Source: Pelagomonas calceolata (lineage: Eukaryota). From it: DNA of 64,000 nt. The position numbers and the translations under genes were made by a program. The stretch is taken from assembly GCA_918797485.1 (NCBI GenBank), contig CAKKNE010000004.1, positions 1,674,001 through 1,738,000 of the forward strand, given 5' to 3'. This document shows positions 4,174-6,816 of the stretch, in pieces. The notes beneath the pieces are model-generated. The model was not told the origin of the DNA. It searched no databases and saw nothing but the letters and a program-made list of their open reading frames with translations. Position 1 is the first letter of the stretch; every line of letters begins with the position of its first letter.

Positions 4174-6816
4174 ATGTTGATGTCTGACTCTAAATTCAGA
4201 CACGAGCTGTATGATTTAGACGAGACTTCGGGACACCTCACGCGCAAACCCGGCTTTCTGCCACCATCGACCGCAGAGGAGCAAAATGCTGAGTATTGCA
4301 GCGTACTCGAAGCGATTACTACCTTTCTCCAGGTAGATTGTCGGTTATTCCATGTGCTGGAACAACCTGAACGAGTAGGCACGAATGCTATCACTAGGGT
4401 TGGTTGAGCATTGGATTCCTGACCGTGAAAATGAAGCCTGTTGTAATATATACATGAGCGACCTGACTCTAGCAACCAAGTTAATAATCATTATACAGAA
4501 TCAGGTTAACGCATTCCAAAACTGTAGATTCCCATTCTACACCACAGGTCGGATCCAGGCCTGGCGTCTGGAGTAGATCATTGTGCCTGACGAGGGGTTT
4601 ACATGTGGGTGGCATGGTGACAGCAATTGAACGGGCAAAATCGGCTGGCTTTGCAGTTGCTGTGCTCAATCCTAACACGAATTCGGTCAGTTAGGCTTTT
4701 ACTATAGTTATTTTTGATACCGGGGCAATTTAGGTTGCGTCTCCGCAAGGTAAATACAAGAGACAGCCAATTGCAAATTCCTTTTCTCCTGAGAATCATG
4801 TTCTCTATGTTTGGGATACAAAAATTGCCCCGGTTGCCCATTTGAAATCAATATATCTCCTGACAAATGGGAATGGTTCTTCCCTTGCCGTTGATATTGT
4901 GAAACTAAGCTGCAACACAAGGCACATTCGCCCAAAGTGTACACATAGGTTCAAAGGCAGATGGTGCGATGTGCAAAAAATCCCAATGAATCCATGCGTA
5001 TCCGCGCCATTGCTTGCATCGAGCCCTCACAGCTTATAGATGGTGGAGAGTCGGGTGGAGACAACGTACAGACTGCGTCTAAAATTTAATTCTGGGTCCT
5101 ACTTGAATCATATCTGCCTTCCTTTTAGGACGTTGCAACTAAAGCAGCATTACGAGCACTAACACTTGCATATGAAGGACACAACACAATAAGCTATCCT
5201 ATTCGACTTCTTGGCGCCGAAAAGAAACTTGGGTGCACTTGCTTGTCCGTGGGTACTGAAGCTGGTGAGGACCAAGCAGCGCCAAATGTGGCCATCTCAG
5301 TGGGCCGAGCTCTGGGTAGTGTCTTGCGCTTCTTTGACTTTGCATCAAGCCCCCCTGCAACAGCGACAGAACTTGGTGAGGCATTTGCTGCTGCAGAAGC
5401 CAAAGCTTTTGGTGTCGACAGCCTGAGGTCGTGCGCAGAGGGTGGAAGGGCTCGTAATGCAGGGCTGCTCATGGCGTCGGGGCCTATCCGCAGCCGACGG
5501 CCGGAAGGACTTCTAAGCCGTATATTTGCAATCAGAGGATACGGTCGTCGAGGCCTGTCCAAGAAGTCAGGGGTCCAGCAACACAGGTTCACCAGCTCAC
5601 TGAGTGTATTTGACTTTGATCTCCTGCGGGTAGTTGGCAAAGGGGCATTTGGAAAGGTGATGCTGGTTCGTAAAAAACAGGGCCAGGTAATTTTCAGGGT
5701 CTTATCTTAGCTAGTAGGAATGACTTACTGTCAATTGCAAACTTACAGGATGCTTCGCGTGTATTTGCTATGAAAGTTCTCAAGAAATCAGTGATTGCAG
5801 CTAAAGGACAAGCAGAGCATACACGCTCTGAGCGTTCGATTCTCTGCGAAATTCGCCATCCATATATCGTTCGGCTTCGCTATGCTTTCCAGTCAGAAGA
5901 GAAGTTGTATCTTGTCACCGATTACTACAATGGTGGTTCTTTGTTTTTTCATCTTCGCAAAAGCCGTGGATTTTGTGAAAGTCGAGCGTGCTTTTATGCT
6001 GTAAGTTCACCTGGACTACCCTAGCGCATGACTTTTATGCGCCTCTTTCTCAGGGCGAGCTACTTCTGGCGCTGGACCACCTCCACAATTCTGGAATCAT
6101 ATATCGCGATCTTAAACTAGAAAACATTCTCATGGACCAGATTGGTCATATCGCACTTACTGATTTCGGACTCTCTAAAGAAAACGTTACCGATGTGCAC
6201 CCAGTGTTAGTTAGTGTCTTGCATGGTCCTGGAAACATGTCTTTTTTGTAGATATTTCACTTCCAGTTAACAACGTTCTGTGGCACTGCTGAGTACATTG
6301 CGCCAGAACTTCTAAAGGGCCTAAAGTATGGTGCTTCTGTTGACTGGTGGTCATTTGGCATCCTTCTCTATGAGATGATGGGATTTCGTACACCCTTTTA
6401 CGATGTTAATCGCAAACTTATGTTCCATGGGATCATCAACTTGGCACCAAGCTTTCCACCGCACTTCACAACTACTGCAAAAGCAGTGTTGCTTCGATTA
6501 CTGGACAAAGACCCATCGCAGCGACTTGGATCCAAAGGGGCGCACGAGATTAAAATGACCGACTTTTTTGGCCCACTTGACTTCCAGAAGCTTCTATTGT
6601 GCCACCTAGTGAAATTAGGGATTTCAACGAAGACTTTTAGAATTTAGGCGCGAGATTACTCCACCTTTTCACCCAAAAGTTTCCAATGAAGAAGATACCA
6701 AATATGTTCCCACAGCGTATCTTTCCGCCTCACCCGAAGACTCTATAGACAAAACAGCAAAAGAAGAAGAAACCCAGCACTTTCAAGGCTTTACTTTCGA
6801 TCCATCCCTGCGTTAA
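4174..6816 (+). CDS. Arb2/FAM172A-like domain fused to an AGC-group (S6K/SGK/Akt-like) Ser/Thr kinase; at least 10 exons; true start uncertain (possibly the ATG at 3789 via further upstream exons)
   Basis: Introns read from the sequence: 4333-4378, 4505-4547, 4686-4733, 4899-4948, 5066-5128, 5687-5748, 6001-6053, ~6195/6210-6251/6266, 6599-6647. The spliced N-terminal half has [86 protein letters not shown], the FAM172A/Arb2 motif order. The kinase has [54 protein letters not shown], an AGC tail ITPPFHP and the hydrophobic motif FQGFTF. Stop TAA at 6814-6816. Confidence 0.88.

Follow-up and report, generated by a model that had tools for sequence, protein, structure and literature searches.

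The window, a stretch of 64,000 nucleotides from Pelagomonas calceolata, carries on its forward strand, at positions 4174-6816, a gene that joins an Arb2 domain to an AGC-type protein kinase. A three-frame reading combined with splice sites resolved it into ten exons and nine GT-AG introns of 43-63 nt, eight of them in phase 0 and intron 9 in phase 2. The product has 723 amino acids without an internal stop, with the Arb2 domain at approximately residues 8-310, and an in-frame stop ending at 4167 lies just upstream of the start codon. The features are as follows.

4174..4332, + strand: exon 1, aa 1-53; start of the Arb2 domain; matches the public protein P0060.
4333..4378, + strand: intron 1, 46 nt, GT-AG, phase 0; P0060 ungapped; no contig joint in 7 runs.
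4379..4504, + strand: exon 2, aa 54-95; Arb2; matches P0060.
4505..4547, + strand: intron 2, 43 nt, GT-AG, phase 0; P0060 ungapped; the relative P0002 keeps an in-frame insert here; no contig joint in 7 runs.
4548..4685, + strand: exon 3, aa 96-141; the part of Arb2 with the highest conservation; Pfam Arb2 E 1.2e-4 by itself.
4686..4733, + strand: intron 3, 48 nt, GT-AG, phase 0; in-frame stop inside; P0003, P0004 and P0007 end here; no contig joint in 7 runs.
4734..4898, + strand: exon 4, aa 142-196; serine-less nucleophile elbow (G187); Pfam Arb2 E 1.8e-3 by itself.
4899..4948, + strand: intron 4, 50 nt, GT-AG, phase 0; P0060 ungapped; retained in P0001, P0024 and P0029; no contig joint in 7 runs.
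4949..5065, + strand: exon 5, aa 197-235; Arb2; matches P0060.
5066..5128, + strand: intron 5, 63 nt, GT-AG, phase 0; joint in X11 and X9.
5129..5686, + strand: exon 6, aa 236-421; end of the Arb2 fold, basic linker with the hydrophobic motif at aa 363-368, kinase glycine loop.
5687..5748, + strand: intron 6, 62 nt; joint in X11.
5749..6000, + strand: exon 7, aa 422-505; kinase N-lobe and catalytic lysine; Pfam Pkinase E 6.6e-15.
6001..6053, + strand: intron 7, 53 nt; joint in X1 and X9.
6054..6194, + strand: exon 8, aa 506-552; catalytic loop and DFG.
6195..6251, + strand: intron 8, 57 nt; joint in X11, X9 and X12.
6252..6598, + strand: exon 9, aa 553-668; activation loop with T560, C-lobe.
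6599..6647, + strand: intron 9, 49 nt, phase 2; joint in X1, X11, X9 and X12.
6648..6816, + strand: exon 10, aa 668-723; AGC C-tail, hydrophobic motif (T717), stop; Pfam Pkinase_C E 4.2e-3, under the curated cut-off.
3050..7206, - strand (inferred): probable antisense RNA spanning the gene from end to end; its 59-nt skip at 6606-6664 is GT-AG on the minus strand.

The initial annotation had read a single gene here, with five introns of 43-63 bp in its N-terminal part and one open exon (5129-5686) running from the end of Arb2 into the kinase glycine loop. The coordinates and sizes of these introns were right, all five being GT-AG and in phase 0, and the three-frame reading agrees on the exon. 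That both domains belong to one gene is confirmed by P0060, a transcript-derived protein (sources MMETSP and Logan) that is identical to the gene model at 722 of 723 residues, ungapped and over the full length, and by contig joints that connect exon 5 to exon 6 and exon 6 to exon 7. A second protein, P0069, is identical at 688 of 721 residues, also over the full length. Five of the nine splice joints (introns 5-9) are present in RNA-like contigs from three studies (X1; X9; X11 and X12); the runs are all sets of contigs, and for most of them an RNA origin is a guess. The contigs of the 7 of 24 runs examined showed no joint for introns 1-4, which is not evidence of absence, and these introns therefore rest on P0060, P0069 and the open reading frames of relatives, which diverge or stop there. 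In run X13, which may carry the locus as DNA, it is unspliced. Taken by itself, exon 5129-5686 gave no Pfam match, and the Pfam Arb2 match stops at aa 222, with exon 6 beginning only at aa 236; the end of Arb2 was placed in exon 6 because the fold match to Clr3 and Hda1 reaches aa 307-309. It is hardly credible that the two halves are separate genes or give mostly separate products, with the fusion a modelling artefact: introns 1-4 are retained in every contig of the 7 runs, and many of the related database entries contain just Arb2 or just the kinase (one MMETSP transcript bears two such ORFs), but P0060 and P0069 are full length, the joints link exons 5-6 and 6-7, full or near-full fusions occur in relatives down to 55% identity, and the partial relatives break off at intron positions, an outcome expected from retained introns or antisense RNA.

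The GC content of the gene is 46%, and that of the surrounding stretches 55-79%. According to the available parts of two genome reports, pelagophyte genomes have a mean of less than one intron per gene, and low-GC centromeric regions are present in P. calceolata (PMC9481584; 10.1101/2024.10.30.620910). Nine short introns are unusual against such an average.

In X2 and X3 one contig spans the gene at a depth of 700-1040 (neighbouring genes, 2-70; 7507-7923 uncovered), although contigs show neither strand nor level; it keeps all nine introns and lacks the 59 nt of the skip. This skip, CT..AC on the plus strand, was found in 4 of 7 runs from three studies (X2, X3, X1 and X9), and in X1 and X9 it stands beside sense joints. 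An antisense RNA, spliced and abundant, probably extends over the gene; because the skip junction has a 6-nt direct repeat, a template-switch artefact is possible. The longest open reading frame on the antisense strand has 153 aa. If real, the antisense RNA explains the retained introns and the many truncated database relatives.

The N-terminal part had been proposed to be an Arb2/FAM172A-type domain, and profile and fold both bear this out. Pfam Arb2 (PF22749) matched aa 47-222 with 51 bits (E 1.7e-13), above the curated cut-off of 26.8, and was present in 13 of 13 aligned relatives. Compared with the Clr3 and Hda1 ARB2 structures (5ikk and 5j8j, ~200 residues), the predicted model gave Z 12.5 both for aa 28-309 against Clr3 (rmsd 4.5, 202 aligned) and for aa 34-307 against Hda1 ARB2 (rmsd 4.0, 197 aligned), and in the ESM Atlas, which holds predicted models, the TM to Arb2 clusters was 0.76. 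The AlphaFold model of P0060 made with an alignment was middling (pLDDT 53.2, pTM 0.45), and the single-sequence fold of P0008 reached a pLDDT of 34.5. PDB sequence searches with an Arb2-only protein and with the profile gave no match, and the top 50 Foldseek matches of the model in the PDB were all kinases.

At the position of the hydrolase nucleophile the domain has G187 in place of serine. Within the clade that holds the gene product this elbow position is Gly in 43, Ala in 3 and Ser in 1 of 47 rows, and serine occupies it in 35 of the 47 rows outside the fused side of the Arb2 tree. Around the old active site N94, G97, G101, W103, S104, R105, N188, G189 and E221 are invariant in 13 of 13 sequences. 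An active hydrolase would agree with the alpha/beta-hydrolase fold, to which true hydrolases match at TM 0.50-0.51, and with the elbow serine kept in 8 of 18 rows of the oomycete-paralogue group; the glycine found here and in nearly all rows of the clade makes catalysis very improbable. A homodimer prediction for the Arb2 domain, made without an alignment, scored 0.00, a value that counts neither for nor against a dimer.

The kinase half was recognized by Pfam Pkinase at aa 400-655, a match shared by 12 of 13 aligned relatives, and its nearest solved kinases are AKT2 (E 2.4e-87) and S6K1 (E 3e-86). The glycine loop, catalytic Lys, RD, DFG and APE elements are all intact. T560 is the PDK1-type activation-loop threonine and T717 the hydrophobic-motif threonine, so the initial identification of an AGC kinase with both sites was correct. 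AKT/PKB, S6K1, SGK1 and yeast Ypk1 align with it end to end over the kinase domain and AGC tail; the difference is that Arb2 replaces their PH, PX or C2 domain. Pfam detected no PH, PX, C2 or FYVE domain in the protein, FYVE was absent in 13 of 13 relatives, and no CxxC occurs within the P0060 linker.

The linker between the halves (~65 aa) is variable and basic, with a net charge of +10. At aa 363-368 it contains a motif of the form hydrophobic-hydrophobic-x-x-hydrophobic-hydrophobic, present in 11 of 21 linkers where shuffling would predict 0.3, six close relatives having been removed beforehand; the motif was chosen after the alignment had been viewed, and 7 of the 15 linkers outside its definition carry it. 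It may resemble the membrane-targeting sequence of MinD. A membrane-binding amphipathic helix is not claimed for the linker, since the hydrophobic moment exceeded that of shuffles in only 1 of 13 sequences.

Word searches recovered full-length fusions whose identity ranged between 95% and about 50%, and the ESM Atlas contains a 245-member Arb2+Pkinase cluster (TM 0.85) in which Oomycota is the commonest phylum. A profile of the Arb2 part matched 984 representatives; a kinase match was present in 34 of the best 150 of these 984, many of the others being fragments, and among 71 longer hits scanned FYVE occurred in 3 and C2 in 2. P0046, labelled unclassified Pelagophyceae, is 77% identical to the gene product. 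An Arb2 tree (FastTree, midpoint root) was built from 112 of 155 domains after 43 short or split rows had been dropped. The clade to which the gene product belongs has a support of 0.995 and comprises 47 rows, in 30 of which a kinase was seen. The other 47 rows of the tree are mostly stand-alone, with one kinase-bearing row among them, and are presumably FAM172A-like, judging by a motif of that family. Adjoining the clade of the gene product, with a joint fused-side support of 0.87, are 18 rows, among them the ones that short motifs from a table in PMC3019232 mark as oomycete paralogues. A tree of 25 kinase domains had backbone support of 20-78 and singled out no named PITG gene as the orthologue.

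By its sequence the algal protein is a member of a stramenopile Arb2-kinase family, and the large separate clade that holds pelagophyte proteins is, as judged from the tree, an addition to the known oomycete family. A domain combination described only from oomycetes is thus extended to a pelagophyte alga and a large sister clade. These members suggest that the Arb2-kinase combination arose before the oomycete/ochrophyte split; the taxa of the clade are mostly unassigned. Other Arb2 architectures were also encountered among five proteins (P0114, P0118, P0175, P0092 and P0144), namely tandem Arb2, several PH domains in 2041 aa, and Arb2 with peptidase S15 or with RhoGAP, the last two of which may be mis-joined gene models.

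The architecture had initially been regarded as uncharacterised, a view that the oomycete literature overturns, since Arb2 with an AGC kinase has been in print for Phytophthora since 2010. In the available part of that paper, Judelson and Ah-Fong listed two AGC kinases of Phytophthora infestans, PITG_06776 and PITG_01365, that carry Arb2 as a novel accessory domain and have orthologues in other oomycetes and none in diatoms, apicomplexans or ciliates (PMC3019232). Both resemble the algal protein in having an N-terminal Arb2 domain and a C-terminal AKT/YPK-like kinase. They differ from it in that FYVE is present in both, together with C2 in PITG_06776, and in that PITG_01365 has retained the serine at the elbow. 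PITG_15089 (702 aa), for which the available table lists no FYVE, is similar in size to the algal protein and shows Arb2 by eye. An Arb2-like motif was likewise seen by eye in PITG_07055, PITG_13415, PITG_14413 and PITG_16446; for none of the five does the available table list the domain, so the P. infestans family may have at least 7 members. Outside subscription journals, the literature since 2011 yielded among the matches listed none with Arb2 and an AGC kinase together in an oomycete, PMC3019232 was the only relevant result for Arb2, algae and kinase, and nothing joined Arb2, a kinase domain and FAM172A.

Novelty is further undercut by the knockout of two P. sojae family members, PsYPK1 and PsZFPK1, in papers whose available text does not name Arb2 (PMC7010300, PMC10381902). 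For the published P. infestans and P. sojae sequences, the comparison was limited to inspection by eye and to similar proteins in the database. The N-terminus of PsYPK1 (Ps350990), in which its authors found no known domain in the part of the paper available (PMC7010300; 'arb' is absent from the main text), is by eye nearly identical to P0144 and P0148, where Pfam Arb2 matched at 133-372 (E 2.5e-38) and 128-367 (E 1.3e-37). Going by these look-alikes, the 'domain-less' N-terminus of PsYPK1 is largely an Arb2 domain, and PsYPK1 would share the Arb2 plus AGC kinase arrangement of the algal protein. The relative P0138 aligns to both halves of the latter (33% identity over 222 columns, E 3e-29, and 43% over 344). 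PsYPK1 has 870 aa with an N-terminal extension of ~125 aa that the algal protein lacks, and the PsYPK1-type elbow keeps the serine in contrast to the algal Gly. Judging from kinase identity to the gene product, 45% for its type against 60% for the PITG_01365 type (P0116), PsYPK1 is a distant paralogue and not the nearest one.

As reported in the available text, deletion of aa 2-303 abolished G-alpha binding by PsYPK1 and sent the kinase to the nucleus, and the knockout was hypersensitive to rapamycin (PMC7010300). PsZFPK1, also an AGC kinase with an N-terminal region required for function, needs residues 2-321 and the T-loop threonine and is cytoplasmic (PMC10381902); the two knockouts answer rapamycin in opposite directions (PMC7010300, PMC10381902). 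The start primer of PsZFPK1 reads as the start of PITG_07055, one of the rows with the Arb2-like motif. This match is not clean because the FYVE motif quoted in the available text occurs in the PITG_16446 row. PsZFPK1 differs from the algal protein in having FYVE and an alanine at the hydrophobic-motif site, where the latter has T717 and no FYVE; a FYVE domain between Arb2 and kinase, a trait of the PsZFPK1-5 subset, is absent from the algal protein.

By analogy with these systems, we hypothesized that the gene encodes an AKT/S6K/SGK-type kinase whose serine-less Arb2 domain would act as a partner-binding module setting the place and time of kinase action in TOR-type growth signalling (rough probability, 0.6). 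PDK1 and a TOR complex would switch the kinase on, as expected from family knowledge (for background on TOR-pathway evolution, see the available part of PMC3236823). The Arb2 domain may retain the kinase in the cytoplasm by binding a protein partner, in the way that the Arb2-containing N-terminus of PsYPK1 uses G-alpha. The short basic-hydrophobic linker motif, which appears to sit where some oomycete paralogues carry C2/FYVE domains, could touch a membrane or a protein surface. A role in partner binding and localisation is favoured because the Arb2-containing N-terminus of PsYPK1 binds G-alpha and bars the kinase from the nucleus. G-alpha may bind the extension and not Arb2, because the 2-303 deletion also removes the ~125-aa extension. 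Such a role would be a testable function away from chromatin for a domain whose known settings have so far been Argonaute and histone-deacetylase complexes only, and it would suggest a path by which nutrient and G-protein signals may act in marine picoalgae.

The initial annotation had instead proposed a nutrient kinase wired to Argonaute or chromatin silencing, so that nutrient signals would tune RNA silencing. FAM172A/ARB2A, fission-yeast Arb2 and the Hda1/Clr3 ARB2 domains share Pfam PF22749 and the fold with the algal domain, yet none of them has a kinase. In the available parts of the reports, FAM172A is a binding partner of AGO2 that brings it into the nucleus (PMC10205598), the Hda1 ARB2 dimer binds histones (PMC5036196), and a nuclear pool of PsYPK1 is required for sporangium formation (PMC7010300); the algal linker is, moreover, basic. 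Against this, the fused Arb2 domains stand apart from the stand-alone FAM172A-like rows at the supports given above, with one kinase-bearing row outside; those rows mostly keep a His-Ser elbow where the algal domain has Gly. The Arb2-containing part of PsYPK1 excludes its kinase from the nucleus instead of importing it (PMC7010300), and the paralogues studied are mainly cytoplasmic. FAM172A contacts AGO2 through an NLS loop (PMC10205598, available part), and a matching bipartite NLS was not apparent by eye in the alignment. Nuclear roles belong to the FAM172A and Hda1/Clr3 side, the algal protein being known here from sequence alone, and outside subscription journals the literature searched held nothing joining Arb2, stramenopile and argonaute. 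The link to Argonaute or chromatin, which draws on the domain name, is improbable.

The main rival to a partner-binding Arb2 is a domain that caps its own kinase in cis, by dimerisation or by autoinhibition, the cap possibly being opened when the former hydrolase pocket takes up a small molecule or lipid. The Arb2 domains of Hda1, Clr3 and FAM172A homodimerise (available parts of PMC10205598 and PMC5036196), the residues invariant around the old active site (13 of 13) are clade-specific, and PsYPK1 output rises on N-terminal deletion (PMC7010300, available part). However, the corresponding deletion in PsZFPK1 caused loss and not gain of function (PMC10381902, available part), the Hda1 pocket is disrupted by the dimer arm (PMC5036196, available part), and the full-length predicted model, at pTM 0.45, is too weak to show contact between the domains. 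Action in cis is conceivable but rather unlikely, and partner binding remains the preferred reading. A bolder and rather unlikely version of partner binding would make Arb2 an unrecognised G-alpha effector module that directly couples heterotrimeric G proteins to TOR-type AGC kinases across oomycetes and ochrophyte algae by nuclear exclusion, the gene in this alga being further gated by the abundant spliced antisense RNA.

Elsewhere in the window, positions 1-2816 (+) hold a low-GC gene that is rich in introns and encodes two bromodomains (Pfam E 3.1e-10 and 8.3e-10); its contig joints were found at 782-874, 1230-1287, 1466-1530 and 1672-1745, together with one antisense-type CT..AC joint at 1402-1451 in X2. 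A single-ORF ATG4-type cysteine protease (Peptidase_C54, E 1.6e-62) lies at 9058-10296 (+). At 7153-7342 and 12322-12480 many contigs have loose ends in several runs, which suggests short repeats or mobile-element ends common to other loci. From 16200 to 45300, and on to 64000, the window consists of ~29 kb of tandem repeats with 79% GC and a higher-order spacing of ~1.1 kb, whose minus-strand frames encode Gly/Ser-rich repeats running into long ORFs at 44.6-64 kb. These frames and ORFs may together form a single giant gene for a repeat protein, with frameshifts that arose by decay or by an error of assembly.
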